From NCBI GenBank assembly GCA_965203315.1, contig OZ241857.1, positions 384,001 to 448,000 of the forward strand: a DNA stretch of 64,000 nt, written 5' to 3'. The number at the start of each line of letters is the position of its first letter. Position 1 is the first letter of the stretch. Below the pieces are notes generated by a model. It was not told where the DNA came from, ran no database searches, and saw only the letters and a list, made by a program, of their open reading frames with translations. Both the position numbers and the translations under genes were made by a program. This stretch comes from Nitrosopumilus sp. (GTDB taxonomy: Archaea; Thermoproteota; Nitrososphaeria; Nitrososphaerales; Nitrosopumilaceae). Shown one piece after another: positions 8,837 to 33,961 of the stretch.

Positions 8837-9295
8837 TCAGAGTTGTACAAGAGTTAAAACCTCATCGGCCTGATCAAAGTCTTTGATCTTTTTATCTTCC
8901 AACATTAAGATCAATCCAATTAATCCTGTGTGTTTTATATCTCGTTTTGACGCTATCTTTCGTGCGTTTCCGTCATCCAGAATACAATACACATTATTCT
9001 TGTACCCGCCTAGTTTTTGATATGTCAAGATCACATCTATCTCACCATTTTTAAGAATTCGTACATCTCTTCGAAATTTATCGATCTCTGTTAGTGAATT
9101 GATTTCTAGTCGTTTGAGTTTACGTTCTTTGAGTAATTTTTGTACATTTATACGCGATGGTTTAGCCTCCAACTCTTTTTGAACATATTTTGGTACCACT
9201 AATTCATGTCCTAATTTTAAAATATCATCAAAGACATCTGGTCTATTGATCAGATCAAATATTCCAATCAATACAGACGCGTCTAGTATCTTCAT
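8837..9295 (-). CDS. PIN-domain protein (DUF3368-like), putative toxin
   Basis: ILDASVLI, GEIDVI, ILDDGNARKIA, HTGLIG acidic PIN pattern. Confidence 0.8.
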   Translation of the reverse strand: MKILDASVLIGIFDLINRPDVFDDILKLGHELVVPKYVQKELEAKPSRINVQKLLKERKLKRLEINSLTEIDKFRRDVRILKNGEIDVILTYQKLGGYKNNVYCILDDGNARKIASKRDIKHTGLIGLILMLEDKKIKDFDQADEVLTLVQL

Positions 9296-12006: not shown

Positions 12007-13485
12007 TCAACCCAAAGTTGGATCGACTATCTTGCCCATGAATAGTATCAGCCCAGTGTCATTATCTTGTACAAAGAATATGAATGGGTGATCGGCATAA
12101 AAGTATAGATTTGGTAGAAACTCCATGCCATCGGGTATTATTGTATCTGCTCTAGGTCTTGTATCTGTACCCATCCGATCAAATAAGAAATACACGGGGT
12201 GATACAACTTGTCTATTTGTAATTCATTTGAGTACTGGACAGTTGCATCTGTAAAGTTATTTTTCGAATCAAATACGTCTTTTACTCCCAACTGCTCAAA
12301 TATCCTACCAAGATCATGACTGTTTTTTATCTCGAATTTTGGCACTTCTGTGTACATGTATGTATGTTCTAAATTACTTTTCCATTCTTCAATCTGTTTT
12401 ACAGATATTGTCTCTTCTATCTCTTTTATGCCGACACTAACATTTGGTAGTATTATTGTTATGGATAGATGTTTTTGTTTGTATGGTATGTTTAATACTT
12501 GTACGTTATCATAATGGGCATATTTGTAACCATACCATGCAGGCTGTATCAAAACATCTACTATTACTTCTTCACTACTAGTCCACAAAGTACTTTTTTC
12601 TAAATGAGTTGGTTCAAATTGCCAATCCCAAGCTGATTTAAAATATGCATTACTTATCAACTGTGAAGACGAATTTTCAAAGTCGCTCGGCAAATATATA
12701 TTGATTATTTTTTCTCTTGTGTTTGTACTGATCCATTCGTTTATTTCATCTATGTTTTTGTTGTTAAAGAGTTCAACTGTGTTTGTTTGATCTTTGAATG
12801 TGTTTTGAGTTATATTGATGTATTTGTCTGTGAAGTTGGTATTTTTTGTAAGCCATATACTGTTGATTATATTGATATCTGTCCATTCCTCATGAACTTG
12901 GATTGTGTTAGTATGATAATTTCCATATTTGTCCTTATCGCAGCACTCTTCATAAGAGACAACTCCCATATGCTTCTTGTCGTTGTTTATAATTGACCAT
13001 AACTTTTTTAGTGATTCGTGTCTAGTTTGAGCATCTGGATTAAATCCCAATACCTTTTCTATCTGTTTTGCAGCATCGCCATCTACCCCCTCATACAGTA
13101 TAGAGAATGCCATAATCAGACTGGTTGGTGAGAAAAGGATGTTTTTGTCTTGGTATTTGGTATCGTTGTGGATGGTTTTGTAAAATTTTATGGCAAACTC
13201 GTTGTTTGCAGATACAATATCTTGTAGTTTACTGTCTGATGTATCTATCGACAGCATCTGTGTATTAGAATATGGCAACCATCCGCGTGTAATCAGTACA
13301 TCTCTGGTCTCTGGTGCAACACATGCTAACGTTCCGCTTGGTCGTTGTATATACACCATGTCTGATTTACATGCATTGTCAGCAAATACCATTCTGGGAT
13401 TTATGGGATCAGAGATATCAAGTTCATAGAATGTAGATGCCGATACAGCAAAGATAATAGATATTGTCAGTATGGTGATCTTCAC
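12007..13485 (-). CDS. Secreted serpin-family protein
   Basis: N-terminal hydrophobic signal; ANNEFA, NILFSPTS, INEWIS, YFKSAW, VPKFEI, FYADHPFIFFV, ILFMGKIVDP. Confidence 0.92.
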   Translation of the reverse strand: MKITILTISIIFAVSASTFYELDISDPINPRMVFADNACKSDMVYIQRPSGTLACVAPETRDVLITRGWLPYSNTQMLSIDTSDSKLQDIVSANNEFAIKFYKTIHNDTKYQDKNILFSPTSLIMAFSILYEGVDGDAAKQIEKVLGFNPDAQTRHESLKKLWSIINNDKKHMGVVSYEECCDKDKYGNYHTNTIQVHEEWTDINIINSIWLTKNTNFTDKYINITQNTFKDQTNTVELFNNKNIDEINEWISTNTREKIINIYLPSDFENSSSQLISNAYFKSAWDWQFEPTHLEKSTLWTSSEEVIVDVLIQPAWYGYKYAHYDNVQVLNIPYKQKHLSITIILPNVSVGIKEIEETISVKQIEEWKSNLEHTYMYTEVPKFEIKNSHDLGRIFEQLGVKDVFDSKNNFTDATVQYSNELQIDKLYHPVYFLFDRMGTDTRPRADTIIPDGMEFLPNLYFYADHPFIFFVQDNDTGLILFMGKIVDPTLG

Positions 13486-15211: not shown

Positions 15212-16288
15212 TTACCACTCAATACCCACTTGTGCTAAAATTACTTTTGAATTATGTGCAGCAATCTTGAACTTTAACTCTTGAACCATGTTTTCCCATT
15301 TTATTGCTTTAATGTCTTCTCCAAATAGGAGTTTCATTGTTGAAAATACACCTTCAACATTTGCACGGTCTCCATATCCTAGAATTATCTTCCAATCATC
15401 TTGATTTTCTTCGCGTTCGTCTGTTGGCATGGAATTTAGATCTTTACCATCTAAAGCACCAAATTGAAACTCGGCTAATTTACTTCTGGGATCATCCCCA
15501 TGTGATACTGCATTACGTTTTATCAATATTCCGTTGATGAGATTATACATCATGCAAAACTCGTGAATCTTTTTTGTATCATAACCTTTGTCGGCGAGAA
15601 TTTTCTTTGTGATTGGTTTACCGGTACGATTACATTCATCAACTATCTCTGTTGCATCTTTTAATAGTTGCTTAAACTGTGACGAATCTGATTTCTTGTC
15701 AGTCGTAATGCTGTATGACCTTATAATCTTTGAATTCACGTCTATACAAATGTGCATTTTTACAAATCCATCTCGTTCTACTTTGTAACGGGCTTCAATC
15801 CATCGACCACCTGCATGTTGTCTAAAGCCAGAAGCATCAATAGCTAGAGTATGTGGCATTTTAGACTTTATAATTAAGAGATCGTTTAAAATATCGACTT
15901 CCTGTGCTTTTATTCTAGCGTGTAACTGAGATCTACGTGGTATCTTGAAATTAGGAAAAGATTTCTCTAACTCTTTTATGAGTCGTCTATATGAATAGTT
16001 GTTTCTAGATTTTGTAATACCTGCGTACATTATAAGAGCTTCTGAATAAAGGAATTGTCCACCACGTTTATTTTTATTCATAAGAGTTAACTCTTTTTCG
16101 AATTCTTCTTTAAATTTATCCTCGTCTTCCAATCTTAAAACAAGCATAAAAAATAAAAGTCTTAATCTTGGTTTATGTTTTAATGATTTCATAATTCTAC
16201 TTAAATTTCTTGCTTTCTCACGTTTTTCTTTACGATTCATGTCCTCATCTTTTAGAAACTTGAACCAATAAGGGAAATCACTCGCCAT
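15212..16288 (-). CDS. IS5-family DDE transposase
   Basis: IDASGF, KMHICID, LADKGYD, YGDRANVEGVFSTMK; paralogue of 60866-61945. Confidence 0.92.
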   Translation of the reverse strand: MASDFPYWFKFLKDEDMNRKEKREKARNLSRIMKSLKHKPRLRLLFFMLVLRLEDEDKFKEEFEKELTLMNKNKRGGQFLYSEALIMYAGITKSRNNYSYRRLIKELEKSFPNFKIPRRSQLHARIKAQEVDILNDLLIIKSKMPHTLAIDASGFRQHAGGRWIEARYKVERDGFVKMHICIDVNSKIIRSYSITTDKKSDSSQFKQLLKDATEIVDECNRTGKPITKKILADKGYDTKKIHEFCMMYNLINGILIKRNAVSHGDDPRSKLAEFQFGALDGKDLNSMPTDEREENQDDWKIILGYGDRANVEGVFSTMKLLFGEDIKAIKWENMVQELKFKIAAHNSKVILAQVGIEW

Positions 16289-16725: not shown

Positions 16726-17685
16726 TTGTACAAAAGTCCACTGTTTGGAATCATACGGAAATACCTGCAGAATGGAACAGATGATCAGACGATTCACATA
16801 TTTGTGCCATACATAAAAACAAACGTACTAGAAAAATTGTTAAAAGATCTGAATAACAATGTGGTTGTGATAACTACATGGAAACCGCGAGATATCTTGC
16901 TTGGTTCATCAGATCTCGATCTGTATCCGTTCTGCAAAGAAAATAAAATTACATTATACATTAACAACAGACTACATCTCAAAGTGTACTCTGTTGGATT
17001 AAATGATGCAATACTTGCCACAGGTAACGTATCGAATAGAGGATTATTGAATAACGGCAATTATGAATCTGCAACACTCGTTCATTTGACTAGCTATGAT
17101 CGACTATTCTTTGAGACTATTAGACATGAATCTAGATTGGTCGATGACGAGATGTATGATCTGCTTGAGACATGGATTAAAGATAACAAGATTGAACCTA
17201 TCGATGACACTCCTATCGAAAGTATTGTGCCGATGTCTAAAAAAGATGACTTTCTTACATCTGCATTGCCAATGACTAGGAGTGTTGATGATCTCATTTA
17301 TGGATACCAAAAGATTGCGTCTGGTGAAGAACCTAGTACTGATTCTGAGACTAGAGCATGTATATTTCATGACTTGGCAAACTATCAGATCACTCAAGGA
17401 TTGAACGAACAAGAATTCAGAGATGAATTATCTGCCAAATTTTTTGCTCATCCATTTATCAAAAAGATCGATGAACTTGTTGATCCAGAAGCTTATTTTG
17501 GACAAATCAAAGAATGGATTCAAGGTAACTGTACCGATGTGCCTGTACCAAGTAGACGTGAATTGACAGGAAATGTTCAAGTGTTGTTAGAATGGTTTGT
17601 AAAACTAGGAAGATCTAGATATGTGATCGATGTGCCGGGAGTTAGATCACAACGTATTCGAAAAATCGACACTACTCATCACTGA
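16726..17685 (+). CDS. Phospholipase D-superfamily putative nuclease
   Basis: FVPYIK, LHLKVY, ATGNVSNRGL, NYE: single HxK motif with downstream GN of PLD-type nucleases. Confidence 0.8.
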   Translation: MYKSPLFGIIRKYLQNGTDDQTIHIFVPYIKTNVLEKLLKDLNNNVVVITTWKPRDILLGSSDLDLYPFCKENKITLYINNRLHLKVYSVGLNDAILATGNVSNRGLLNNGNYESATLVHLTSYDRLFFETIRHESRLVDDEMYDLLETWIKDNKIEPIDDTPIESIVPMSKKDDFLTSALPMTRSVDDLIYGYQKIASGEEPSTDSETRACIFHDLANYQITQGLNEQEFRDELSAKFFAHPFIKKIDELVDPEAYFGQIKEWIQGNCTDVPVPSRRELTGNVQVLLEWFVKLGRSRYVIDVPGVRSQRIRKIDTTHH

Positions 17686-17721
17686 TATCTTTTTAAACCC
17701 CAGTACAGCTCAACTGGTGAA

Positions 17722-19302
17722 TTGGATATCGAAGATCTCTTACGAAGAGCAAGCTCATCATTAGGCAAATTCTTAACAAAAGAAGCGTTAGAAGTCTTGA
17801 AAACAGATGCAGAAGCATTACGTCCAGAAAACTTGATCAGTCTTATTCTTGATTCGATCTCTCCATACAGTATGCTCAAAGATCAAGATATGCGTAACAT
17901 ACTAATAAAAGCTATGACGCAAAAAGATGCAGAAGAGTTTGCCAAGTTTATTGGGATTTCAGAATGGAATGACATTTACTATAAATTAACACATACGAAA
18001 TTTACAGATAAAACATTAAAAATTGCACTGGAATTTTTTGGTGAAAAATTTGAAGATGACATACAAATGACAAAACCTGATTTTGAGAATATCGCCCCAT
18101 CGAGGCCTCTGTTTGACTATCAAGTGAGTACAATCTACAAAATTCAAAAATTTCTATCCGTGAAACCACACAAAGTTTTACTACACATGCCTACAGGAGC
18201 TGGCAAGACGATCTCAACTATGAGAGTCATACTGAATCACCTATTAGAAAACCCACACAACCTTGTAATCTGGCTTGCTCATAACGAAGAGCTATGTGAA
18301 CAAGCATTTGTCGAATTCCAAAACTCGTGGAAATTTGGAGGAGATAGACCAATTGACACATATAGATTTTTTGGCAAAAGTCAAGTTGACCCATTGAATA
18401 TAACCGATGGGTTTATGGTAGCTGGTCTACAAAAAATGTTGGCGTCTGCAAGAAAGAATAATGAATTTCTAGCAAGAGTCTCTCAAAAAACTACTTTGGT
18501 GGTGATCGACGAAGCTCATCAAGCAATAGCTGAAAAATTCTCTATTGTCATCGAAGAATTAGCAGACAATGAAACAAAATTGTTAGGTCTCAGTGCAACA
18601 CCTGGACGTAAAACTGAAATTGAAGATGAAGAAAATAGAAAATTGGCGAGATTTTTTAATAGTCAAAAGGTAATGTTGGACACAGGCGATGAAAACCCAA
18701 TACATTATTTAACTAGAAATAACTATCTAGCAGAACCAAAATTTAATCAAATCATATATACTGGTGAAGTTTTAACCCCTCAAGATTTAAGCGACATAAA
18801 AAAACATGCAGACATTCCGTACAGAATTTTAGAAAAACTCTCAATTCAAACAAAACGTAATCTCGTCATAATGAGTGAGATCATGCGTCTTGCTAACATA
18901 CACAAAAAGATAATTGTGTTTGCGACATCTGTTAGTCATGCTCAAACAATTTCTCAGATACTAGCAGCTAAAAAATACAAAGCTCACTATCTCACATACA
19001 ATACTCCTTCCAATACAAGAAAGAAGATTTTACACAACTACAAGAACACAGATACACCGATGATCTTGTGTAATTATGGCATACTTACAACCGGTTTTGA
19101 TGCTCCTAGAACATCGGCAATCGTTATAGCGCGTCCTACTAAATCACGTGTTTTGTATGCTCAAATGGTAGGTCGAGGAATACGTGGTGAAAGAGCAGGT
19201 GGAAACAAAAGATGTGAAATCTCAACCGTTAAAGACGAGATCGATGAGTTTATTAATGTAGCAGAAATTTTTATACAATGGGAGTCTGCGTGGAATGACT
19301 GA
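17722..19302 (+). CDS. SF2 (DEAH) helicase/translocase, restriction-subunit-like
   Basis: MPTGAGKT, IDEAH, GLSATP, TTGFDAP, QMVGRGIR. Confidence 0.93.
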   Translation: MDIEDLLRRASSSLGKFLTKEALEVLKTDAEALRPENLISLILDSISPYSMLKDQDMRNILIKAMTQKDAEEFAKFIGISEWNDIYYKLTHTKFTDKTLKIALEFFGEKFEDDIQMTKPDFENIAPSRPLFDYQVSTIYKIQKFLSVKPHKVLLHMPTGAGKTISTMRVILNHLLENPHNLVIWLAHNEELCEQAFVEFQNSWKFGGDRPIDTYRFFGKSQVDPLNITDGFMVAGLQKMLASARKNNEFLARVSQKTTLVVIDEAHQAIAEKFSIVIEELADNETKLLGLSATPGRKTEIEDEENRKLARFFNSQKVMLDTGDENPIHYLTRNNYLAEPKFNQIIYTGEVLTPQDLSDIKKHADIPYRILEKLSIQTKRNLVIMSEIMRLANIHKKIIVFATSVSHAQTISQILAAKKYKAHYLTYNTPSNTRKKILHNYKNTDTPMILCNYGILTTGFDAPRTSAIVIARPTKSRVLYAQMVGRGIRGERAGGNKRCEISTVKDEIDEFINVAEIFIQWESAWND

Positions 19303-21094
19303 GAAAGACTATTCTATATTTGCAGGGGATAAATTCATAGAATCAATGCGTAGTAGCGGATATGAAGATACATCATATGCAGTAGCAGAACTAGTGGATA
19401 ATTCCATAGATGCAAATGCGAAACATATTGAGATATTGTGTCAAGATGTCGATGACCCTAGTACGGGCAGATCCATCTTAAAAAAAATAGCTGTGCTAGA
19501 TGATGGTAATGGAATGAACGCATCCCAACTGCGTAGTGCACTTTTATTTGGAGATGGTACACGTGGAGATAATTCTAAAGATATTGGAAAATATGGCATG
19601 GGGTTGCCAAATTCATCCTTATCTCAATGTAAAAGAGTCGAAGTCTACTCGTGGCAAAATGGTTCTAAACCAGTTTATAGTTATATTGATGTTGATGAAG
19701 TAAAACAAGGAAAAAAAGAGATTCCCATACCTGTTGAAAAAAAGATCAATGTTGCATGGATAGAGATGGCGACTCACTTTTCAAGAGAGTCAGGCACACT
19801 AGTGGTGTGGTCTAAACTCGATAGATGTACTTGGGTAACATCAAAGAAGATTATCGAACACTCTGAATTTCACATAGGGCGCATCTATAGAAAGTTTATC
19901 GCTAGTAAAAGAGCCACAATACTCATGACGGCTTCAAAAATAAACGAAAATGATCAAGTTGTTGACGTCAACGCCAAAGAAATGCTTCCAAACGATCCAT
20001 TATATTTAATGGCGCCTACGTCTACACCTGGCAAGTGGGGAAAAATTCCAATGTTTAAGCCAGACGTAACGCCTGAAAAAACCTATACTATAGATTATGC
20101 TGGGAGACCACACATAATAACTGTCAGGTATTCTATTGAGAAGGATGAGCTTAGAGCCCCAGAAAATGTATCTGGTGATCAAGGTAATACACCACATGGA
20201 AAACACGCTCGCAGAAATGTAGGTGTCTCTATTATGCGAGCTGATCGTGAAATAGCATTAGATATGAGCCTGGTTATAGGATCTGATCCTCGGGATCGAT
20301 GGTGGGGTGTTGAAATCGATATACCATCCTCATTAGATCGAGTAGTAGATCTTACAGCAGATAAACAAAAGATGGTTGCGTTGACACAAATAATGAGACT
20401 CATAGGTAGATTTGGTGATGATGACTCGGACAGAGATGATATCTTGTTAGATGTCTCTGAGATGGATCATGCTCGTTCAAAATTATTTTCAATAATCCGC
20501 GACACAAAGGCACACATAAGTTCTATGCAACGACGAATTAGAGCAACACGTGCAGGGACACGCACGAGTGTAAAGGGGTCAAAATTGAAAGCCAAGATCG
20601 ATGGCGGAATAAAGAAAGAAGCAGAAGTGGGCGAAATCGGAGAAAGTGACAAAGATAGAGAAAAGTTAACTAAAGAGGAGCGTATAACTATGCTTATCGA
20701 AGATCAAGTGTCTGACGGAGTCGAAGAAAGTCTAGCTAGAGAACGAGCAGAAAAGATGGTAGAGGAGGACTACAAGATCATCTTTGAAGAGGTAGAGGGA
20801 GAAGGAAGTAGCTTCTTTACTGTTCAAAATATTGGTGGAATACTCAAAGTAAAGATAAATTCCAATCATCGAGCATACAAAAATCTATTGACGTTGACTG
20901 TTTCAGAAAAGAAAGATAGTTTGAACTGTGATGAGCGTCTAGACCTAACTAAAGATGGACTGTGGCTACTGTTGGCATCTTGGGCACGTCTTGAAGATCT
21001 CACAGAGAATCGTGAAAAGAAAAGAAACATACAAAATACTAGATTTGATTGGGGTCGAGAGTTGGATATATTTTTAGAACAAAATGAAAAGTAG
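19295..21094 (+). CDS. GHKL/MORC-type ATPase
   Basis: AELVDNSIDA, DDGNGM, GKYGMGL, GTLVVW; 8-bp overlap with the helicase. Confidence 0.9.
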   Translation: MTEKDYSIFAGDKFIESMRSSGYEDTSYAVAELVDNSIDANAKHIEILCQDVDDPSTGRSILKKIAVLDDGNGMNASQLRSALLFGDGTRGDNSKDIGKYGMGLPNSSLSQCKRVEVYSWQNGSKPVYSYIDVDEVKQGKKEIPIPVEKKINVAWIEMATHFSRESGTLVVWSKLDRCTWVTSKKIIEHSEFHIGRIYRKFIASKRATILMTASKINENDQVVDVNAKEMLPNDPLYLMAPTSTPGKWGKIPMFKPDVTPEKTYTIDYAGRPHIITVRYSIEKDELRAPENVSGDQGNTPHGKHARRNVGVSIMRADREIALDMSLVIGSDPRDRWWGVEIDIPSSLDRVVDLTADKQKMVALTQIMRLIGRFGDDDSDRDDILLDVSEMDHARSKLFSIIRDTKAHISSMQRRIRATRAGTRTSVKGSKLKAKIDGGIKKEAEVGEIGESDKDREKLTKEERITMLIEDQVSDGVEESLARERAEKMVEEDYKIIFEEVEGEGSSFFTVQNIGGILKVKINSNHRAYKNLLTLTVSEKKDSLNCDERLDLTKDGLWLLLASWARLEDLTENREKKRNIQNTRFDWGRELDIFLEQNEK

Positions 21095-21124
21095 GTTTAA
21101 AAGCAACTGACCGCAGTTCCGTAT

Positions 21125-22291
21125 ATGCCATATATGGATTACAACTCTACAACACCCATAGACACTCGTGTGTTAGACATAATGAACAAAACATATACTG
21201 AACACTTTGGAAACCCATCGAGTACACACCCGGTAGGAATTGATGCAGATGATCTCTTAAATACAGCACGGGAAAATGTATCGGCACTAGTAAATGCTAA
21301 ATCAAACGACGTGATATTTACTTCAGGAGCTACAGAAGCCAACAATATGGTGATATCATGGATCGGAACAAAGAGTGATAAGCCAAACCGTCTCCTATAT
21401 GGATCCACAGAACACAAGTCAATAATTGAGACTTCCACTTACATGTCCAAAAAATTTGGACTCGAAATAAAACCAATCCCAGTAACAACGGATGGTGTTA
21501 TAGATATAGAAAGATACAAAGAACTCTTGGATGAATCATCTACAGATATCGTATCAGTGATGGCGGCAAATAGTGAGACGGGTGTAATTAATCCAATCAA
21601 AAAAATTGCTCACCTAGCTAAATCTCATGGCGCTATATTTCACTGTGATGCTACACAAGCTGTAGGTAGAATTCCTTTTGATATGAATGATCTAGATATC
21701 GATATTGTCACAATGAGCAGTCATAAAATTTATGGTCCAAAAGGTGTAGGAGCCCTAATTGCAAACAGATCAATCCGAAGGCAGTTGAGTCCTCTGATTC
21801 ATGGCGGAGGTCAAGAAGGAAATCTGCGTAGTGGTACAGAGAATGTTCCAGGCATAGTTGGATTCTCAAAGGCATGTGAGATAGCAATATCTGAAGGATT
21901 AGATGACTCTAAACGACAAGCAGATATGCGTGATAATCTAGAATCCCATTTGATATCATCACTAGATAATGTTACTGTAAATGGTGGTAATGTGGATCGC
22001 ATACCTAACACAACAAACCTAAGAATCGCCGGTGCTCTGGCCGATGCAGTAGTCGTAAACTTGAAAGAGACAGATATCTCAACTGGCAGTGCATGTTCAT
22101 CATCTACAATGGAGCCTTCACATGTACTAATTGCTATGGGTTTAACTAGAGATCAAGCAGATGAATCAATTCGTATATCTGTTGGAAGACCTACAACGCA
22201 ACAAGATGTGTACACGACAATTAGAGATATCATACAATCAGCTACATATGTTAGGCAAAAAGAGACAGAGATCACAGGACGTGTAATATGA
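21125..22291 (+). CDS. Cysteine desulfurase (IscS/DndA/SspA-like)
   Basis: YMDYNSTT, FTSGATEANN, SSHKIYGPKG (PLP lysine), STGSACSS (catalytic Cys). Confidence 0.95.
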   Translation: MPYMDYNSTTPIDTRVLDIMNKTYTEHFGNPSSTHPVGIDADDLLNTARENVSALVNAKSNDVIFTSGATEANNMVISWIGTKSDKPNRLLYGSTEHKSIIETSTYMSKKFGLEIKPIPVTTDGVIDIERYKELLDESSTDIVSVMAANSETGVINPIKKIAHLAKSHGAIFHCDATQAVGRIPFDMNDLDIDIVTMSSHKIYGPKGVGALIANRSIRRQLSPLIHGGGQEGNLRSGTENVPGIVGFSKACEIAISEGLDDSKRQADMRDNLESHLISSLDNVTVNGGNVDRIPNTTNLRIAGALADAVVVNLKETDISTGSACSSSTMEPSHVLIAMGLTRDQADESIRISVGRPTTQQDVYTTIRDIIQSATYVRQKETEITGRVI

Positions 22292-23253
22292 TGCTAATTA
22301 CCGAGGCTGTTCCCGCACCATCATTTTCACGACATGAATCATTTCATCTTCGATATGGTTGGCTCAAGAAAGCATATAATCAAGTAATGCAAGATAGTTC
22401 TATATTCAAACGTGATAACGCCCCTATCAAACTTGGTGTAGGAAAAAATATGGTACGCGCCATAAAGTTTTGGGGATTGGCTAGTAAAATATTGGAGATA
22501 GACTCTCAAACAAAGCATGGTCCTGTAATATCTACGTCTCTTGGCCATTACATATTTGCCGATAATGGACTCGATCCATACATCGAGAATCCAAACACGC
22601 TATGGCTTTTGCATTGGCTATTACTTGCTCCTCCGTGTAGACTTCCTGTATGGTGGTTAATCATGAACCGATTTACTGCAACAAACATCAAAGTAAATGA
22701 TCTTATAGACACAGTCACAAATCAGATCACAAACATTAGTGAATGGGCTTCGCCTAGCCCAAATTCTATAAAAAAAGATATTGATGTATTCATCCATACC
22801 TACACTACTAGACGAGATAAGATGTCCATAGAAGAATACTTGGACTGTCCTTTACGCCAAATTCACATACTTAAACAAAATTCTAAAGACGAGATACGCT
22901 TCATCTATGGCGAAAAATATGGATTGTCCCCTTTTGTGGTAGCATTTGCCTGTCTAGACTTTATAGACAGAGCAAACATTCAATCTAAGAGCGTATCTGT
23001 AAGTAAACTTGCGACAGAATATGGTGGTGTTGGGAACACATTCAAGATTACTGAACACGATTTAACAAAAATGTTGTTGGAAACCTCTAATCAAACTAGT
23101 ATTTTGTCAGTACAAAATATTGCGGGTCTGCCACATTTAACATTCAAAAGCACTGCAAAAGAAGCTTCATTAAAAATATTGGCAGAAATGTATGGCAAGA
23201 AGCGATTACCACACATCAAATCTTTATCAGAATTAAAGGTGATTATTCAATGA
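22288..23253 (+). CDS. sspB: DUF4007 protein (SspB-like)
   Basis: FSRHESFHLRYGWLKK, LGVGKNMVRAIKFW, DPYIE, TLWLLHW. Confidence 0.85.
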   Translation: MMLITEAVPAPSFSRHESFHLRYGWLKKAYNQVMQDSSIFKRDNAPIKLGVGKNMVRAIKFWGLASKILEIDSQTKHGPVISTSLGHYIFADNGLDPYIENPNTLWLLHWLLLAPPCRLPVWWLIMNRFTATNIKVNDLIDTVTNQITNISEWASPSPNSIKKDIDVFIHTYTTRRDKMSIEEYLDCPLRQIHILKQNSKDEIRFIYGEKYGLSPFVVAFACLDFIDRANIQSKSVSVSKLATEYGGVGNTFKITEHDLTKMLLETSNQTSILSVQNIAGLPHLTFKSTAKEASLKILAEMYGKKRLPHIKSLSELKVIIQ

Positions 23254-26200
23254 CAACTCTACAAAAGACTAAAAAGAAGACTAAACCACTATCTCGTCTA
23301 GTCACCACCATCCAAAAGCCAAACGCTTCTACAAATGTAGAGCATGATGATATTATCTCTTTAAAACAGTACTTTCCAGGTCCCAGTACACTAGATGTAA
23401 TCAAGCGGTTTGCAAACAGTCTTACTAACTCCAAAAATGGAGTAATGTTATCGATAACTGGTCCTTATGGATCTGGCAAATCCACCATGGCAACATTTCT
23501 AAAAGGATTAACGTCGTCTAGATCTACTACAGAATGGCAGACATCTCACCACATATTGAAGAAGATCGCTCCAGACATAGATAAACTACTTGTAGATGGA
23601 AGAAGACTCACCGAGACTGATGAACGTGGACTATTAACGTGTGCAATATCTGCAAGACGTGAACCACTATCTATAACAATACTTCGTGCTTTACATAAAG
23701 GGGCAGAACAATACTTTGGTAGATATACAAACAAGCATTTTGCAAATGCTGATCTTCTTGTACACGCGATCAATAATTTGGACAAAACACCTCCAAAAAC
23801 CAGCGATATCATAGAGATCATATCTAGTATGTGTCAAGTATCTCCTGTACTGTTATTGATAGATGAGTTTGGGAAGAATATAGAGTATTTTACAGTTGAT
23901 GGGACAGAAAACAGCGATCTGTTTCTTTTGCAACAACTTGCAGAGATGTCTGGTCGCGGAAGAAGAGTACCGTTATCGATCATAACGCTGCAACATATGG
24001 CTTTTGAAGAATACGTGGGTGTATCAATGAATCAAAAACGGGAATGGTCCAAGATTCAAGGCAGATTTGAAGATATACCTTTTGCAAACTCGCCAGATCA
24101 AATACGCCTGCTAATCTCAAAGAGCATACGTATTGACAACTCGATCGCTAGTAACAAAATCATTAAAAGATGGGCAGAACAGCAGTTAAAGAAATTACAA
24201 CATATTGTAAATAATGAGTCTAGTACAGATTTAATTGCAGCTTGTTACCCACTAGATCCATTATCTCTTGAAATTCTTCCTGAACTGTGTACTAGGTACG
24301 GTCAACATGAGCGAACATTATTGTCATTTATCACAAGTGGTGGTAAACACACAGTTGCGACATTTATAGATCAAAATACGTGGGACAATACCGCCAGATT
24401 ACCCACAATGAGTATTGATGTACTCTATGATTATTTCATAAGGGACACTAGTATGATTCATTCTAATTCTAACATAACTAGACTGATGGAGATTGAAACA
24501 ATAATCCGTGACGCACACGGTTTAACCGATCTTGAGACCAAAACACTCAAAGTCATAGGATTAATAAATTTAATTAGCACGTCTGGAAATCTACGTGCGT
24601 CTCAAAGAGTGATCGAGTATGCAATCGGATGTAATCCGAATTTAATCTTGAAGAAACTGGAAAAAAGATCCATCATTACATTTAGAAAACATGCTGATGA
24701 ATATAGGATATGGCGTGGCACAGACATTGATATTGCTGTCAATTTAGAGATACAGAGCAAGCGATATCAAAATACCCCTCTTCTAGAAATATTAAATCAA
24801 ACAATACGTATTGATGCAATAGTAGCTGCCAAACATAATATTGAAACTGGCAGTATGAGGCTCTTTGAGAGACGGTTTGCTGATGGTTCAAACACTGTTC
24901 ATGTCGATGATGCTTATGATGGCGCAATCATTTATAGAATTGCTAACTGTGCAATCCCAAAGGCTAACAAACCAATAATTGTGATCGACGCACAAGATTT
25001 TACTGATCTTCGTGTTGCGAGTATACAAGTTATGGCTATTCAAGATACTTTAAACGATGAGACTGTTGTTAATGATTGGGTAGCTACAAAAGAACTGCGT
25101 GAGAGACTTGCAGATGCTGAGACGAGAATGGATCAAGTGTTTAACAGCACGTACGGCTACGATGCTCGATGGTCATATCTTGGTAAGAATAAAGCAATCG
25201 GAAACGACACACTCAGTTCAATAGTATCCAAAGTTTGTGATGTCGCGTACAATCAAACACCAAAGATTTACAACGAGATGATCAACCGTAATGTAATATC
25301 TAGTCAAGGGATTACAGCTAGGAAAAATCTATTTGACAGAATGCTCACTAGTCCACATAAACATTCTTTTGGTATTGAAGGCTGGGGTCCTGAAAGAGCA
25401 CTTTATGAAGCCATGTTTGCAAAAAAGATTCATGTTGGTAAATTTAACTCAGAGTGGAAGTTACAAGATGTTAACGACGAATCCTTGACGCCTTCTTGGA
25501 ACATGATGCTTGATACAATCAGATCTTCAAAGACGCGCGTATCGATATTTGATATATATGAAAAATGTAAATTACCTCCGTATGGAATCAAAGAAGGAGT
25601 CATACCGTTATTTGTTATTCCTATTCTTTTAATACACAAAGATAACATCGCCGTGTATGAACATGGATCATACGTTCCAAAGATTACTATTGAAGTTATA
25701 GAAAGAATGGTCAAAAACCCTGTTCATTTTGAGGTAAAGTATTTCAAACTGACCCCATCAAAGAAGCAACTAATTCAAACAGTATCAAATGATCTAGGAA
25801 TAAAGACAAATTCAAGTATACTTGGTATTGTGAGTCACATTGTAAGAATAGTCTCTACATTACCCCCGTATGTGATCAAGACGCAGAGGTTGAACAAAAA
25901 CACACTAGCTGTAAAGGGTTCCATCATATCGGCAATAGAGCCAGATGTATTGTTGTTTCATACGCTTCCAAAAGCACTTGGTTTTAAGCCATTTTCTACT
26001 AGCGTCTCGGATAAAGATATTATAAAGTTCTCTAAAACACTCGCAAATTCAGTCAAGACACTGCAAAATGAATTCGACAAGACACTTGACGATGTTATAG
26101 ATATGTTATATGAAACAACGGGCATATACGATCGAGCAAAATTATCAAAGTTAGCCAAAATGATGTTAGATGACGTCACAAACAAAACGATGAAGACTTT

Positions 26201-26588
26201 TCTAAGCGCAATATCTACTGATGCATTGGAGAGTGATTATGATTGGATCAAATACGTTGCATTGAGTCTAACTGACATACCTCCTGCAAACTGGAAAGAC
26301 GAACAGAGATTGATGTTTGAGAACAAGCTTGCAGAAATATCGAGTCAATTTAATAGACTAGCCTCACTACATTTTGCAAATATTGTAGATGCTTTTGAAA
26401 CACCTTATTGCCAAATAACCATCACACATGCAGATGGTAATGAAGAACACAAGATGGTTGCCTTGAATCCTGAGCGAAAGAAGGTTATAGAAAAAGAAGC
26501 AAAGAACATACTTCGATCATTAAAAAAGAAAGGCTTTTCTGTTAAAGATAGAGACGCTTTAGTGGCTATCCTAAGTTCTGAAGACTGA
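23250..26588 (+). CDS. sspC: Large P-loop ATPase (SspC-like)
   Basis: Walker A GPYGSGKST, Walker B LLIDEFGK, EWSKIQGRF, QHERTLLSF, PPYGIKEG; lies between DUF4007 and PAPS-reductase genes. Confidence 0.8.
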   Translation: MTTLQKTKKKTKPLSRLVTTIQKPNASTNVEHDDIISLKQYFPGPSTLDVIKRFANSLTNSKNGVMLSITGPYGSGKSTMATFLKGLTSSRSTTEWQTSHHILKKIAPDIDKLLVDGRRLTETDERGLLTCAISARREPLSITILRALHKGAEQYFGRYTNKHFANADLLVHAINNLDKTPPKTSDIIEIISSMCQVSPVLLLIDEFGKNIEYFTVDGTENSDLFLLQQLAEMSGRGRRVPLSIITLQHMAFEEYVGVSMNQKREWSKIQGRFEDIPFANSPDQIRLLISKSIRIDNSIASNKIIKRWAEQQLKKLQHIVNNESSTDLIAACYPLDPLSLEILPELCTRYGQHERTLLSFITSGGKHTVATFIDQNTWDNTARLPTMSIDVLYDYFIRDTSMIHSNSNITRLMEIETIIRDAHGLTDLETKTLKVIGLINLISTSGNLRASQRVIEYAIGCNPNLILKKLEKRSIITFRKHADEYRIWRGTDIDIAVNLEIQSKRYQNTPLLEILNQTIRIDAIVAAKHNIETGSMRLFERRFADGSNTVHVDDAYDGAIIYRIANCAIPKANKPIIVIDAQDFTDLRVASIQVMAIQDTLNDETVVNDWVATKELRERLADAETRMDQVFNSTYGYDARWSYLGKNKAIGNDTLSSIVSKVCDVAYNQTPKIYNEMINRNVISSQGITARKNLFDRMLTSPHKHSFGIEGWGPERALYEAMFAKKIHVGKFNSEWKLQDVNDESLTPSWNMMLDTIRSSKTRVSIFDIYEKCKLPPYGIKEGVIPLFVIPILLIHKDNIAVYEHGSYVPKITIEVIERMVKNPVHFEVKYFKLTPSKKQLIQTVSNDLGIKTNSSILGIVSHIVRIVSTLPPYVIKTQRLNKNTLAVKGSIISAIEPDVLLFHTLPKALGFKPFSTSVSDKDIIKFSKTLANSVKTLQNEFDKTLDDVIDMLYETTGIYDRAKLSKLAKMMLDDVTNKTMKTFLSAISTDALESDYDWIKYVALSLTDIPPANWKDEQRLMFENKLAEISSQFNRLASLHFANIVDAFETPYCQITITHADGNEEHKMVALNPERKKVIEKEAKNILRSLKKKGFSVKDRDALVAILSSED

Positions 26589-26785
26589 TTCCATAGCGAA
26601 TCAACTATGCAATCTCTTAATTGATAAAGCACTAAAAATTGATGTTGTTAAATCGTTTTACGCATCATTCTATAACGCGGAATTAAAAAGTTACATCTCG
26701 TACTCCATATCCATATCTCTTGCAAAACTATGCTCGATCTAAACTTTTAGAAAATTTTAATAAATAGCAATATGATCTTAGATGT

Positions 26786-27625
26786 GTGGTTAGGCATGTC
26801 TGTGGCATATCTGGAGGTAAAGACTCTAGTGCTCTTGCTGTATATATGAGAGACAAAGTTCCAGACATGGAGTATTTCTTTTGTGATACGGGTGCCGAGT
26901 TGCCAGAGACTTATACATATCTTGCAAAGCTCGAGGTAGTACTAGGTAAAAAGATCGCCAAACTCAATTCAACACGTAGTTTCGATCACTATTTTGAAGT
27001 CTTTCGTGGAACTCTGCCATCGCCACAGATGCGTTGGTGTACAACAATGCTAAAGATAAAGCCACTCGAAGAGTGGATAGGCGAGGATGAAGTAATATCG
27101 TATGTAGCCATACGTGCAGACGAAAAGAACAGGACTGGATATGTGTCTACAAAGCCCAACATAACTACTGTATTTCCATTCATTGAAGACGACATAGATC
27201 ATTCAGGCGTAATCAGGATACTTGAAGATGCTGGAATTAATCTTCCAGAGTACTATGAGTGGCGAACTCGTTCTGGTTGTTACTTTTGTTTCTTTCAGCG
27301 AAAAGCAGAATGGGTAGGTCTAGCAGACAAGCATCCTGATCTCTTTGAACGTGCAGTTGCAATAGAACAAAAGATACTCAAAGATGCAGGTGTTGCAGGA
27401 GATGCAGATTTTAAATCAAGTGGAATGAAAGGTCGTCAGTATACGTGGTCACAAGGAGAGACACTCCCGGAACTCTTGTCTAGAAGAGAAGAGATAATGA
27501 AGAATCATCAAGAGAGCATCAAGAGAGCAAAATCAAAGCGAAAGAATCTACCTCTGATCGAAGTTCTCTCAGATGCTCTAGATGACGATGACGAGTCTAC
27601 ACCGTGTACTATGTGTCATCTGTGA
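26786..27625 (+). CDS. sspD: PAPS-reductase-family protein (SspD-like)
   Basis: GISGGKDS, DTGAELPETY, RWCT, RSGCYFCFFQ, C-terminal CTMC. Confidence 0.85.
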   Translation: MVRHVCGISGGKDSSALAVYMRDKVPDMEYFFCDTGAELPETYTYLAKLEVVLGKKIAKLNSTRSFDHYFEVFRGTLPSPQMRWCTTMLKIKPLEEWIGEDEVISYVAIRADEKNRTGYVSTKPNITTVFPFIEDDIDHSGVIRILEDAGINLPEYYEWRTRSGCYFCFFQRKAEWVGLADKHPDLFERAVAIEQKILKDAGVAGDADFKSSGMKGRQYTWSQGETLPELLSRREEIMKNHQESIKRAKSKRKNLPLIEVLSDALDDDDESTPCTMCHL

Positions 27626-30856: not shown

Positions 30857-32089
30857 TTATGATAATAGATCCTGCTTCAGAAGCGTATGTATTGGTACTA
30901 CGTCATTAAATTTCTCAACCATCTCGTGATCTCTTAATCTAGTCAAGGTTGAATTTCCATAGTCGTCTCTACTAGTTAGCAAAGCTTTGTCAATTGGTGC
31001 ATATTCTATGATATCAGGATTATTGGTGATGGCAATAATTTGTTTATCATCCGAGGCATAATCCATCAGATTAAATATTTTGCTCAGCAATCCAAGATGG
31101 AGACTATTCTCAAGTTCGTCAATTACGGCAAGCGATGAATCTTCAAAAAACATAAAGACTAGTAATGCAATAACATTTACTGTCCCATCTGAAACATATG
31201 GTGCAGGTATGTTTATGTCACTATGAAATTCTTTTAGCGCAAACTTTACTTTTCCATTATGGTGTTCTATAGAGACCCTTTCCAAAAACGGTAGTAAACT
31301 TTGTATGTGATTTAAAAATATTTCCGATTTTTCATCATCTTTTAGAATATTCTCCAAGATGCAAGACAGATTAGAACCATCATCTCTTAATAAAGAAAAT
31401 TTACTTGTAATTGTTGGAGTCTTTAACGCTTTTGGATCAAGATCACATATGGCTATTCCAGCGATAAATCCATACCAATTTGGAAGTATAAAATTAAGCA
31501 ATTGTCCATACGCCAACAATTCTTTTTCATCCCTCTGAAGATGTTTTAGCATCTCGAGTTGTTTGTAGTTGATGGTTTTTGTCTCATTATAAATATTATC
31601 AGAAATTACGATCTCTCCTTTGCTCTTTGAGATAAATATTTTATGAATATTTTTCTGCGAATCATTCTGATGATCGAGACAAATGATCACACGATCATCT
31701 GTTATGTCATAGTCCACACCTTGAGTAAATTTAATACAAAATCTGTAGATGATTTCTGTTGTTTTCATCTCAGTGGGCACTCTTCCAATTTTCATAATAG
31801 TCTCAGGGGTATCCGATAAGAAATGCATCTCAAAGGATAACAATGCATCTTTTGAATTAAAGTTGAGTACTTGTTCACGACCACCATGAATAGATAATGC
31901 TGAGGATAACCCTTTAGATATGATATCTTTAAAAAATGAAAAAATATTCTTAAAATTAGATTTTCCTGTTGCGTTTCGTCCAAGGATTATGTTGAATCTA
32001 TCAAGATCTATATCCACATCTTGGAAATTTTTAAAGTTGTGAACTCTGATCTTTCCTACATAAAAATTAGGTTTACTTGTGGCCAACAT
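30857..32089 (-). CDS. ABC-type ATPase of the AAA_21/AbiEii class
   Basis: NFKNF, GRNATGKSN, VSDGT, IDELENSLH. Confidence 0.85.
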   Translation of the reverse strand: MLATSKPNFYVGKIRVHNFKNFQDVDIDLDRFNIILGRNATGKSNFKNIFSFFKDIISKGLSSALSIHGGREQVLNFNSKDALLSFEMHFLSDTPETIMKIGRVPTEMKTTEIIYRFCIKFTQGVDYDITDDRVIICLDHQNDSQKNIHKIFISKSKGEIVISDNIYNETKTINYKQLEMLKHLQRDEKELLAYGQLLNFILPNWYGFIAGIAICDLDPKALKTPTITSKFSLLRDDGSNLSCILENILKDDEKSEIFLNHIQSLLPFLERVSIEHHNGKVKFALKEFHSDINIPAPYVSDGTVNVIALLVFMFFEDSSLAVIDELENSLHLGLLSKIFNLMDYASDDKQIIAITNNPDIIEYAPIDKALLTSRDDYGNSTLTRLRDHEMVEKFNDVVPIHTLLKQDLLS

Positions 32090-32236
32090 AGTATTTTTTA
32101 TAAATTTCCTTATATTCTTTTCAAAAGTCTACGATAGATGATTTTCAATCATATCTGTTGATATCAAGTGATCATGTAAATATTCTAGACTATTAATTTG
32201 GTACTCGACATATTGACAAATTAACGCCACTATGAA

Positions 32237-33961
32237 TTACCTAGATCGAACTTTGTCTTGTATCTGTGCTAGGATGAGCTCAGCCTTGTTTTTGTTCTCA
32301 AAGTTTTCGCTAGTCTCGTCAATAATCTCATCTATTTCATAACTCTTGTCGACCAGTACGTTTGCAACATGATCATCTAGTGTACCACTACCTATCAAAT
32401 AATATGCAAAGACAGTACTCTTTTGTCCAATACGATGTAATCGGTCTTCAGCCTGTCTGTGAATTGCAGGACTCCAATCTAGTTCTGCAAATACTACATA
32501 CTTTGCTCTAGTTAGGTTTATTCCAACGTTACCTGCACGCAAACCAGCAATCATCAGCTTTGTCTCACCTTGTTGAAACTTGTTTATGTTGGATTGTCGC
32601 ACTGTGTCTGTCTGTCCGCCTATTATTGATACTGGTGAAAACTCTGACAAACTATCGTGTAATAGTTTGTGCATGACTTTATGATGGCAAAAGACAACAA
32701 CACTCTCTTCAATCTCCATAATGTTTTGCACAAAGTTGATTATGTGTGGTAGCTTTGCGATACCAGCTATCTGTCGCTCACTCTGAATTGCGCGTTGGTA
32801 TGCAGCAGACTTTGAAAACTCACTCTTTGCTTCTTTTTGTGCACTCTCCAATGTGTCCCAAATTTTGGCCAACTCGTCTAGATAGTAATCGGTATTTGCT
32901 GCAATAACCTCTTTGTATCGAACTTTGTCTTTGAGTTCTTTTAAAACATCTGATTTCTTTCTTCGTAACATCACATGCTTTTGTAGTTCGTTACGAAGTG
33001 ATGCACGCCTATTCTCTAGCACTATTGCTTTTCCTTTAGAGTTTACATAGCAAAAGTACTCACAAAACTCTTTAAAACTTCCCAACAGTCCAGGTCGTAA
33101 AATATCTATGATTGGCCATATCTCAGAGCCTCGATTATATATGGGAGTTCCTGATAGACCTATTCTGTATCGAACAGTTGATAGTGCAGATAGTTTTTTG
33201 ACTGCCTTGTATTTCTGTGTGGTCTTGGAGCGGAGGTTATGAACCTCGTCACATACTATGCACTTTATTCCTGCTTTAGCAAGATCTGCATATCGTTTGA
33301 ACAACAACTCGTAGTTTATCAGATAGATATCAGTTTGTGGTAATGGACTAGACTTGCCGGTTCTAATTGTGGTCACGCTAGGTGACTCAGACTCTATGAT
33401 GCGACCGTTTCGACTCTTTCTCTTGAGAAACTTTCTTATCTCATTCTCCCAGTTGTTAAGAGTTACCAGCGGAGCCACTATCAGCATCGGAAATGACTGT
33501 TTCTCGGTTGCAGCGTACGCGAGTGTTTGGACAGTCTTTCCAAGACCCATCTCATCTGCAAGTAATGCATTGCCTGAAGATTTTAACAAGAAATCCAAGC
33601 CTTCTCTTTGAAAGTTTAACAACTTGCCTCTAAACTGTTCTCCCGCCTTTGCACGTTTCAGCTTTAGCCTTACAGCTGGAGCGGTAGTCTTTACATATGT
33701 ACTCTTTGTGATCTTTTTCTGCCACGCACTCTTTGATAGAATCTTGAGTGGGTATCTATCCATTATGAGTTTGATCTGTTTTATGTTCTCGTCACTGTCT
33801 GGGATGATTATCTCGTTGATGTTCTCACCATACCATGCCTCTGTGACTAGTCGAGACAGCATTGAGACAGCTCGATCTCCAGTAATCTTCCAACTCCAGA
33901 TCTTGGAGTATCTATCTAGAACATACTCTAGTGTACCAATGGTTTTGGTCATAGTCTTCAT
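32237..33961 (-). CDS. SNF2-family helicase
   Basis: LADEMGLGKT, CDEVH, LSGTP, GINLT, QAEDRLHRIGQ. Confidence 0.95.
   Translation of the reverse strand: MKTMTKTIGTLEYVLDRYSKIWSWKITGDRAVSMLSRLVTEAWYGENINEIIIPDSDENIKQIKLIMDRYPLKILSKSAWQKKITKSTYVKTTAPAVRLKLKRAKAGEQFRGKLLNFQREGLDFLLKSSGNALLADEMGLGKTVQTLAYAATEKQSFPMLIVAPLVTLNNWENEIRKFLKRKSRNGRIIESESPSVTTIRTGKSSPLPQTDIYLINYELLFKRYADLAKAGIKCIVCDEVHNLRSKTTQKYKAVKKLSALSTVRYRIGLSGTPIYNRGSEIWPIIDILRPGLLGSFKEFCEYFCYVNSKGKAIVLENRRASLRNELQKHVMLRRKKSDVLKELKDKVRYKEVIAANTDYYLDELAKIWDTLESAQKEAKSEFSKSAAYQRAIQSERQIAGIAKLPHIINFVQNIMEIEESVVVFCHHKVMHKLLHDSLSEFSPVSIIGGQTDTVRQSNINKFQQGETKLMIAGLRAGNVGINLTRAKYVVFAELDWSPAIHRQAEDRLHRIGQKSTVFAYYLIGSGTLDDHVANVLVDKSYEIDEIIDETSENFENKNKAELILAQIQDKVRSR

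Follow-up and report, generated by a model that had tools for sequence, protein, structure and literature searches.

A nuclease, a helicase and a MORC-like ATPase encoded beside the Ssp phosphorothioation genes of a Nitrosopumilus genome: probably a widespread, still unnamed effector of the Ssp defence system

Background

Which protein turns a phosphorothioate (PT) mark on DNA into a defence when none of the known restriction genes stands beside the genes that write the mark? The question is raised by seven genes in a 64,000-nucleotide stretch of a Nitrosopumilus sp. genome (contig OZ241857.1, positions 384,001 to 448,000; this whole stretch is called the window below), where a modification module, sspABCD, is preceded by genes for a nuclease of the PLD (HKD) fold, a superfamily 2 (SF2) helicase and a MORC-like GHKL ATPase, which we designate collectively the trio. 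The writing of PT marks by SspABCD is established for the family, and is predicted from the genes in this archaeon. The question is a general one, as most sspBCD clusters have no known restriction partner, so that it is open whether they defend at all: neither sspE nor sspFGH adjoins 2,211 of 2,678 such clusters, and further partners have been proposed (PMC8092258; this and the other papers are cited for those portions of their text that were available to us).

In this report, we examined the proteins of the cluster, their conservation among other genomes, and the place of the trio among known PT-linked systems. Our principal result is that the trio is a real and conserved module linked to Ssp, and apparently an undescribed one; its gene content, its intact catalytic motifs, its folds and its linkage to ssp genes across phyla are documented below. 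From these sequences, the trio is probably a widespread and still unnamed effector of the Ssp defence system, and we hold with moderate confidence that the locus itself is a PT restriction-modification island in which the trio serves as effector module beside SspABCD.

Results

The seven-gene cluster

Seven co-oriented open reading frames (ORFs) occupy positions 16726-27625 on the plus strand in the ORF listing of the window, in the order PLD-helicase-GHKL-sspA-sspB-sspC-sspD (Table 1). Successive genes are separated by a gap of 36 bp, an overlap of 8 bp, a gap of 30 bp, two overlaps of 4 bp each and a gap of 197 bp. The 8 bp shared by the helicase and GHKL genes, together with the mere 30 bp before sspA, indicate that trio and modification genes are packed as one unit, and seven long ORFs that match known families and point the same way are no chance pattern. 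The gap before sspD holds an A+T-rich, TATA-like stretch, possibly a promoter.

A first-pass annotation of the window had given the same coordinates and spacings. Its domain calls reappear in Pfam (ResIII, DEAD and Helicase_C for the helicase, HATPase_c_3 for the ATPase, and Aminotran_5, DUF4007 and PAPS_reduct in the module), and its assignment of the last four genes to Ssp is borne out by a complete set, SspA to SspD each being matched nearly full length by PADLOC. Its PLD call fared less evenly: the Pfam match is weak and below cut-off, and the call stands by virtue of invariant residues and the predicted fold described below. DUF4007 has a single match in the host genome, which measures 2.47 Mb and is 99.98% complete, and none in 14 control genomes.

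Table 1. Genes of the cluster and the evidence for their assignment (positions in the window; aa, amino acids)
Product	Position	Strand	Length (aa)	Evidence
HKD/PLD-fold nuclease	16726..17685	+	319	Invariant HKD residues and predicted fold; C-terminal helix-turn-helix (HTH) array, ~168-319
SF2 helicase/translocase, ResIII type	17722..19302	+	526	ResIII E 5e-21; DEAD; Helicase_C
MORC-like GHL ATPase	19295..21094	+	599	GHKL and S5 transducer, ~1-420; helical C-terminal region
SspA, cysteine desulfurase (sulfur donor)	21125..22291	+	388	PADLOC SspA 434.7 bits, DndA 425.1; Aminotran_5 E 7.2e-77
SspB (DUF4007), DNA-binding/target-recognition subunit	22288..23253	+	321	DUF4007 278.5 bits (cut-off 27); PADLOC SspB 299.8
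SspC, BrxC/PglY-like P-loop ATPase	23250..26588	+	1112	PADLOC SspC 956.9 bits, positions 3-1104 of 1104; BrxC 333
SspD, PAPS-reductase-like sulfur-transfer enzyme	26786..27625	+	279	PADLOC SspD 370 bits, 1-276 of 277; PAPS_reduct E 7.4e-11

Conservation of the trio

One genome per species was scanned with a 22-sequence alignment of the ATPase, which gave 582 pattern matches and 320 confirmed relatives; the best 80 loci, which are the closest relatives of the query and no random sample, were kept. The queries against their six-frame ORFs were the seven proteins of the cluster and a PLD profile built by iteration, SspB, SspC and SspD being called at E<1e-15. These loci belong to at least nine bacterial phyla (cyanobacteria, Actinomycetota, Pseudomonadota, Bacillota, Chloroflexota, Bacteroidota, Planctomycetota, Armatimonadota and Spirochaetota) and to one archaeon. 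The helicase gene stands immediately upstream of the GHKL gene, on the same strand, in 69 of the 80 and somewhere in the locus in 76; a PLD homologue was found in 57, immediately downstream of the ATPase in 53, and another endonuclease-like protein holds the PLD slot in four. At least one of SspB, SspC and SspD is encoded in 64 loci, and of the 16 in which none was found, 13 end at a contig end and three have full flanks. When the count is restricted to the 50 loci flanked by 8 kb or more on each side, 47 have one or more Ssp genes within 10 kb, 46 have at least two and 36 all three. Conservation of the trio beside ssp genes in other genomes, which the first-pass annotation had named as a test, is thus strong across phyla.

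Gene order is less constant than gene content. Helicase-ATPase-PLD is the usual order in bacteria, and the PLD-first order of the window recurs in locus L003 (L numbers designate loci, G numbers sampled genomes). SspB-C-D-helicase-ATPase-PLD lie on one strand in L084 and L086; the order is PLD, SspD, helicase, ATPase, SspA, SspB, SspC in L088, and SspA-B-C, a DUF262 gene, SspD, helicase, ATPase in L089. Since the neighbourhood is kept while the order of its genes changes, these genes are best seen as one functional unit. The content of the nuclease slot also varies: in L058, L067, L076 and L082 (Xanthomonas, Vogesella, Comamonadaceae and Acidovorax, respectively) it is filled by a protein of 363-381 aa whose first ~100 residues match the PADLOC model 'Effector, endonuclease' (PDLC00735), and in the last three of these loci SspG and SspH genes stand immediately upstream of the helicase. 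Swapping of this kind resembles a pattern frequent in multi-gene defence systems, and the motor and the MORC-like clamp would then be the constant pair, with an exchangeable nuclease.

The closest related locus belongs to a Nitrosopumilus genome and encodes an ATPase 59% identical to that of the window. In the archaeal relative L090 (14487-18930, minus strand), where the order is PLD-ATPase-helicase, the PLD protein is close to ours (E 2.4e-136) and the helicase (3.5e-65) and GHKL protein (3.5e-33) are far more divergent, which suggests module swapping within the system. L003 (6642-7406) and L090 (18908-19696) also carry, directly upstream of the PLD gene, a DUF2196 and Schlafen/AlbA_2 protein that is absent from the window.

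The same linkage was approached from the modification side. Among 401 genomes of the window's own phylum, DUF4007 occurs in seven, all of one family (and in 0 of 23 of the same genus), and a close GHKL orthologue (E<=1e-168) in six, all within those seven; in another DUF4007 genome the ATPase is divergent and the same PLD protein is encoded nearby. The 401 genomes sampled in Pseudomonadota include 13 with DUF4007, counting the seed, hence 12 independent ones. The ATPase is present in four of the 12, at 6-12 kb from SspB, and all four loci consist of SspBCD with helicase-ATPase-PLD; full-length SspH lies near SspB in five (and a weak match in one more), SspE in one, and none of these in two. 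In 301 cyanobacterial genomes, DUF4007 was found in 34 including the seed, 25 of the others being full length, and the ATPase gene, to which this count is confined, accompanies eight of the 25 (seven on the same contig, at 6-17 kb). The trio accompanies about one third of the sampled Ssp modules, a share comparable to that of SspFGH among the Pseudomonadota sampled.

The three proteins of the trio

Sequence profiles recognise the nuclease poorly (Pfam PLDc_2, E 0.006, 16.8 bits for a cut-off of 27), but H84, K86, N101, N112 and E114 are invariant in an alignment of 32 sequences, and the predicted model is of good quality (predicted local distance difference test, pLDDT, 88.7). Residues 1-150 match the PLD domain of SauUSI in structure comparison (Z 12.4, 133 residues, root-mean-square deviation (rmsd) 2.9), then Nuc (Z 11.6, 126 residues, rmsd 2.7), NucT (Z 11.0) and BfiI (Z 10.3); Nuc, BfiI, SauUSI, NucT and Zucchini together span Z 9.7-12.4, and BfiI, SauUSI and Zucchini are the top Foldseek matches. 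With HxK...N on a PLD fold, the protein is a member of the PLD/HKD superfamily. Each chain has one HKD motif, in which the positions of the Asp and of the Gly-Ser are G91 and A98-T99, and by analogy with Nuc and BfiI the active site would need a nuclease dimer. At E<=1e-30, the PLD-HTH family has 1406 representatives in a set of 1.84 billion, and nearly all of them measure 290-335 aa; in P0190, of 886 aa, the PLD domain is C-terminal and the N-terminus is unrelated to GHKL.

The C-terminal domain of the nuclease (168-319) aligns to the DNA-recognition modules of N.BspD6I (Z 7.8), BrxA (6.9), SspB (6.5), FokI (6.2) and BpuJI (5.1), as well as to ArsR-type winged helices, all with middling Z. 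The modules matched here are a set that has been grouped as one HTH array (PMC12839542, PMC10853773), and it is as a set that these matches carry weight despite their individual scores; on the predicted model, it is this array that would most plausibly read DNA or PT. Sequence homology of this domain with SspB was considered and rejected (hhalign probability 0.1%), which leaves a likeness at the level of fold, and a search of the ESM Atlas with the domain gave a best score of 0.81, below the meaningful level.

The helicase has intact motifs in its translation (GAGKT, DEAH, SAT and QMVGRGIRG), preceded by an N-terminal domain of ~125 residues without assigned fold. Its closest solved sequences are RadD (1.8e-21) and SauUSI (1.8e-10). 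The PADLOC model of PbeA matches it at E 3.5e-25 over profile positions 232-617 of 672, that is, over the helicase part alone.

The third protein is a GHKL ATPase by Pfam (HATPase_c_3, E 5.3e-24), with E32, D35, N36, D69, G71, G73, G98, G101 and G103 invariant in the 22-sequence alignment. In its predicted model (pLDDT 81.8), residues 1-419 match the ATPase module of MORC3 (Z 23.2, 308 residues, rmsd 3.5), followed by MORC4 (Z 21.8), SMCHD1 (21.5), Hsp90 (19.4), MORC2 (19.2) and MutL (18.4); MORC tops this list, yet Hsp90, MutL and TopoVI-B lie within ~5 Z units, so 'MORC-like' is to be understood as a fold ranking. A GHKL domain and S5 transducer with intact ATP-binding motifs, adjoining an SF2 helicase and a nuclease, are the hallmarks of a MORC/paraMORC restriction-type operon, and all are present here. 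MzaB matches weakly, over the N-terminal 210 residues only (PADLOC 54 bits; NCBIfam 77.9 bits against a cut-off of 850), and as there is no other Mza match among the cluster proteins, we do not place the cluster in the Mza system. A search of proteins of 1050-2995 aa for fused GHKL forms found none at E<=1e-20, a result that counts only weakly against them. In L041 (9968-12655), from a Pleurocapsa metagenome-assembled genome, GHKL and PLD form a single ORF of 896 aa, and the helicase is displaced upstream by 6 kb; the joined ORF reflects either a true fusion or a fault of assembly.

Known PT partners

PADLOC v2, which includes models of SspE, SspF, SspG, SspH and PbeA to PbeD, was run on the seven cluster proteins and 23 other ORFs of the window, all of at least 100 aa, a size limit that a small PbeB could escape. 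On the trio it gave only the PbeA match to the helicase part and weak DrmC and MzaB matches. This answers the check by PADLOC that the first-pass annotation had proposed, in that the PLD and GHKL proteins have no v2 model beyond the two weak matches, and it upholds the statement that the window holds no known partner, since no SspE, SspFGH, PbeB, PbeC, PbeD or PglZ was found among the ORFs scanned. Over the whole host genome, the only SspE match covers profile positions 24-133 and falls on the DndI-like protein discussed below, and SspF, SspG and SspH have no match, although the three models are functional (307-734 bits on ORFs of L011 and L067).

Two further expectations were not confirmed. 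Mutual exclusivity of the trio with sspE or sspFGH fails: the helicase-GHKL pair adjoins SspFGH in seven of the 80 loci, all without a PLD gene, and of eight DUF262-like ORFs tested from the loci, six are bona fide SspE, one is of the Orf5/DndI type and one is of another kind. Nor is the genome without a candidate partner, since a DndI-like gene lies 1.4 Mb from the cluster, and in the closest relative a homologue of it adjoins the cluster. It is in fact normal for one modification module to have several effectors, as SspE and SspFGH act additively on one SspBCD (PMC8092258).

Genes around the cluster

The surroundings are those of a defence island. Transposase genes (DDE_Tnp_1, DDE_Tnp_4 and IS240-type) lie at 15212-16288, 35767-38127 and 46218-47363, one of them 437 bp upstream of the PLD gene. 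At 30857-33961 (minus strand), a 410-aa AAA_15/AAA_21 ATPase (PADLOC HEC-01A, 130 bits, with likeness also to AbiLi, AriA and mad3) adjoins a 574-aa SNF2 helicase (ZorD 249 bits, DpdE 200 bits), which covers the C-terminal two thirds of both profiles; they may be another defence pair. An intact D12-class N6-adenine DNA methyltransferase (39274-40173, minus strand; PADLOC type II methyltransferase, 367 bits) has no restriction enzyme recognised beside it among the window ORFs scanned. The claim that most restriction-modification genes nearby are broken found no confirmation: the D12 methylase and AAA ATPase are near full length against their models, a paralogue equal in size to the SNF2 protein is encoded elsewhere in the genome (contig 1, 361958-363406), and the only split-looking genes near the cluster are transposase pieces, the pair at 37019-38127 resembling a single DDE_Tnp_1 gene in two parts. 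The argument for selection on the cluster that had been built on broken neighbours is accordingly not borne out.

Elsewhere in the window, 12007-13485 (minus strand) encodes a 492-aa serpin (Pfam Serpin, E 3.8e-74), here in an archaeal genome. Small ORFs at 8837-9295 and 44567-45184 match PADLOC PDC-S70 (E 3e-14) and the C-terminal part of DarG (E 3.7e-11), respectively, and neither has a Pfam match. The archaeal origin of the window shows in its genes for aRF1/eRF1 and for ribosomal proteins L3 and L4 of archaeal type, and no tRNA gene was found in its 64 kb.

Discussion

A possible mode of action

Folds, motifs and context together suggest a mode of action, of which complex formation, PT sensing, either of two directions of the PT effect and antiviral activity would be the elements. 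SspABCD would put PT marks on the host DNA. The SF2 translocase and the MORC-like GHKL ATPase would form a constant core, in which ATP may bring the ATPase into a dimer that clamps or loops DNA in the manner of MutL and MORC, and this core would be coupled to a single-HKD nuclease that pairs up into one active site, as in Nuc and BfiI, and whose FokI/BrxA/SspB-like HTH array holds DNA. PT could either protect the DNA that bears it, as with SspFGH, DndFGH and DndI, or activate the effector, as with SspE. In the most likely mode, the complex would load on DNA and translocate; host PT marks would halt or release it, and foreign DNA without PT would be nicked or cut.

Several points weigh against the trio as the PT-responding effector. 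The 80 loci were selected for closeness to the query, and the cyanobacterial count covers one gene of the three. Three of the 50 full-flank loci (L014, L041 and L056) have no SspBCD, and several cyanobacterial loci have no PLD gene or a truncated helicase. No PT-reading domain was identified by sequence in the trio, the SspB likeness of the HTH array (Z 6.5) being at the level of fold only. Where it occurs alongside SspE (six loci) or SspFGH (7 of 80), the trio may be an add-on rather than the primary effector, and in the host genome the DndI-like nuclease could carry out PT-dependent restriction.

Alternative explanations

Among the alternatives, the one that survives best, though we consider it improbable, is that the trio serves modification itself, through scanning or loading of SspBCD, processing of nicks at PT insertion, or repair or turnover of PT sites. 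The closest solved helicase is indeed a repair helicase, RadD, the ATPase is a relative of MutL as well as of MORC, the trio genes are interleaved with the modification genes, and 19 of the 80 loci have either no nuclease gene or another gene in its place. But about two thirds of the sampled Ssp-bearing genomes have no trio, so modification does not need it, and SspBCD with IscS suffices to modify DNA in E. coli (PMC8092258). Moreover, the catalytic HKD residues are invariant, and an HKD nuclease with an SF2 helicase is the architecture of the effectors PbeA and SauUSI.

Next, and also improbable in our view, the trio could be a self-contained, MORC-type ATP-dependent restriction system (type IV-like, or resembling restriction-modification) that shares islands with Ssp and works independently of PT. 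Operons of a GHKL ATPase, an SF2 helicase and a nuclease are known with methylases or alone (PMC2292703), and the window is a defence island by its insertion sequences, AAA ATPase, SNF2 helicase and D12 methylase. The three full-flank loci without SspBCD point the same way, as do more distant GHKL paralogues in G323 and G132, two genomes without DUF4007. Mere sharing of islands is difficult to reconcile with the finding that 47 of the 50 full-flank loci, in many phyla, have Ssp genes no more than 10 kb away, and with the interleaving of trio and ssp genes in several orders. DUF4007 is itself rare (13 of 401 Pseudomonadota, none of the controls), and the close GHKL orthologue never occurs without it in the 401-genome sample of the window's phylum.

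The remaining alternative, on which we place the least weight, is that a DndI-like DUF262-HNH protein does the PT-dependent restriction in this host, the trio being redundant, decaying or unrelated. DndI, the name now given to Orf5 (PMC4198939), is a PT-sensing restriction nuclease of this domain type (PMC11662687). The gene in question (contig 1, ~1.838-1.840 Mb) encodes a protein matched by PADLOC Orf5 at 416 bits over profile positions 6-542 of 543, and by SspE at only 54.6 bits; its sole sequence match in the PDB is DndI (9jfl, E 2.2e-15), in an alignment that pairs the P-x-Y-Q patch and DGQQR. Homologues accompany Ssp clusters elsewhere: in L003, one of 39% identity precedes the PLD gene by 1.3 kb, and others are found inside the cluster in L089 and L090. 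The host gene, however, is 1.4 Mb from the cluster, beside dnaJ, and the motifs that align are shared by DUF262 proteins in general. In the host family, 13 of 61 genomes have GmrSD-type genes whatever their Ssp status, by a model that is also positive in four of the 14 controls, and the DndI-like copy may therefore have no tie to PT. The genes of the trio are all intact and their catalytic residues invariant, and since SspE and SspFGH act additively, a second effector need not idle the trio. Finally, the idea that the trio is SspFGH under another description was rejected, as the published proteins differ and the SspF, SspG and SspH models match other ORFs and not the trio; the Streptomyces 'SspH, a HATPase regulator' (PMC9137472) is an unrelated protein of 142 aa that has the name alone in common.

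Implications

The reading of the trio as an Ssp effector has consequences beyond this archaeon. It is about an even call, in our judgement, whether the helicase, the MORC-like ATPase and the HKD-HTH nuclease make up a third major class of PT-linked restriction machine, present with about one third of bacterial Ssp modules and reaching ammonia-oxidising archaea. If they do, this class would account for a good part of the 'orphan' sspBCD clusters, and if the trio is their partner, a sizeable share of sspBCD clusters would become complete restriction-modification systems. A prokaryotic relative of MORC would then act downstream of an epigenetic mark on the DNA backbone, in parallel to eukaryotic MORCs on marked chromatin, and would offer a tractable bacterial model of a MORC-type ATPase, a motor and a nuclease responding to such a mark. 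Nitrosopumilus-like archaea, in which few defence systems are known, would also gain a PT-based one. The trio can be recognised readily, is not represented in PADLOC v2, and consists of three enzymes with clear active-site residues.

Comparison with known systems

Among the closest known systems is DndCDEA-PbeABCD, in which an HKD/PLD nuclease and an SF2 helicase of the ResIII type likewise accompany PT modification (PMC6459918, PMC10853773). There, PbeA is an HKD-SF2 fusion that acts with a CxC ABC ATPase (PbeC) and a DndE-like PbeD (PMC6459918, PMC10853773); in the window, nuclease and helicase are split, the separate PLD gene having no PbeA match, the nuclease bears an HTH array, a GHKL protein takes the ATPase slot, and the module is Ssp and not Dnd. 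SspABCD-SspFGH shares the modification module, and its effector, SspFGH, is likewise encoded by three genes next to sspBCD and damages DNA without PT (PMC8092258), but SspF with its Walker A motif, SspG of no described function and the FtsK-like SspH are unrelated to the trio (PMC8092258). SspE of SspABCD-SspE and DndI of IscS-DndBCDE-DndI are PT-sensing restriction partners too, and a DndI-like gene exists elsewhere in the host genome and beside the cluster in relatives; they are nonetheless single DUF262-HNH proteins, of which the window cluster has none, and share no domain with the trio.

BREX type 4 is related through the modification genes, as its BrxP, BrxC and DUF4007 protein are homologues of SspD, SspC and SspB (PMC12839542). 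It differs in that PglZ (PF08665) has no match in the host genome, with a control positive in two of 14 genomes, and no BrxL turned up among the window ORFs scanned. SauUSI, which gives the best structural match to the PLD domain and is a sequence relative of the helicase, follows the same logic of a PLD nuclease, an SF2 motor and a DNA-reading domain, but within one polypeptide that reads 5-methylcytosine and has neither a GHKL partner nor a modification module.

The trio itself is foreshadowed by the MORC/paraMORC operons of Iyer, Abhiman and Aravind (2008), in which a GHKL-S5 ATPase lies beside a Rad25/ResIII-like SF2 helicase and a nuclease, sometimes of the HKD type (PMC2292703); Nitrococcus mobilis, which is our locus L024, is among the species abbreviations of a figure legend there. 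Those operons are tied to methylases, with PAPS and phosphoadenosine absent from the available text (PMC2292703), whereas ours is tied to Ssp. A literature search on Ssp or PT with MORC, GHKL or DUF4007, outside which lay subscription journals, figures and supplements, returned no text joining Ssp to the trio, and the available text of PMC10853773, PMC12839542 and PMC12914056 mentions neither MORC nor GHKL. Ssp, effectors with HKD and SF2 domains, and restriction operons of the MORC type (PMC2292703) were thus each known, and what is apparently new here is the joining of Ssp with the trio.

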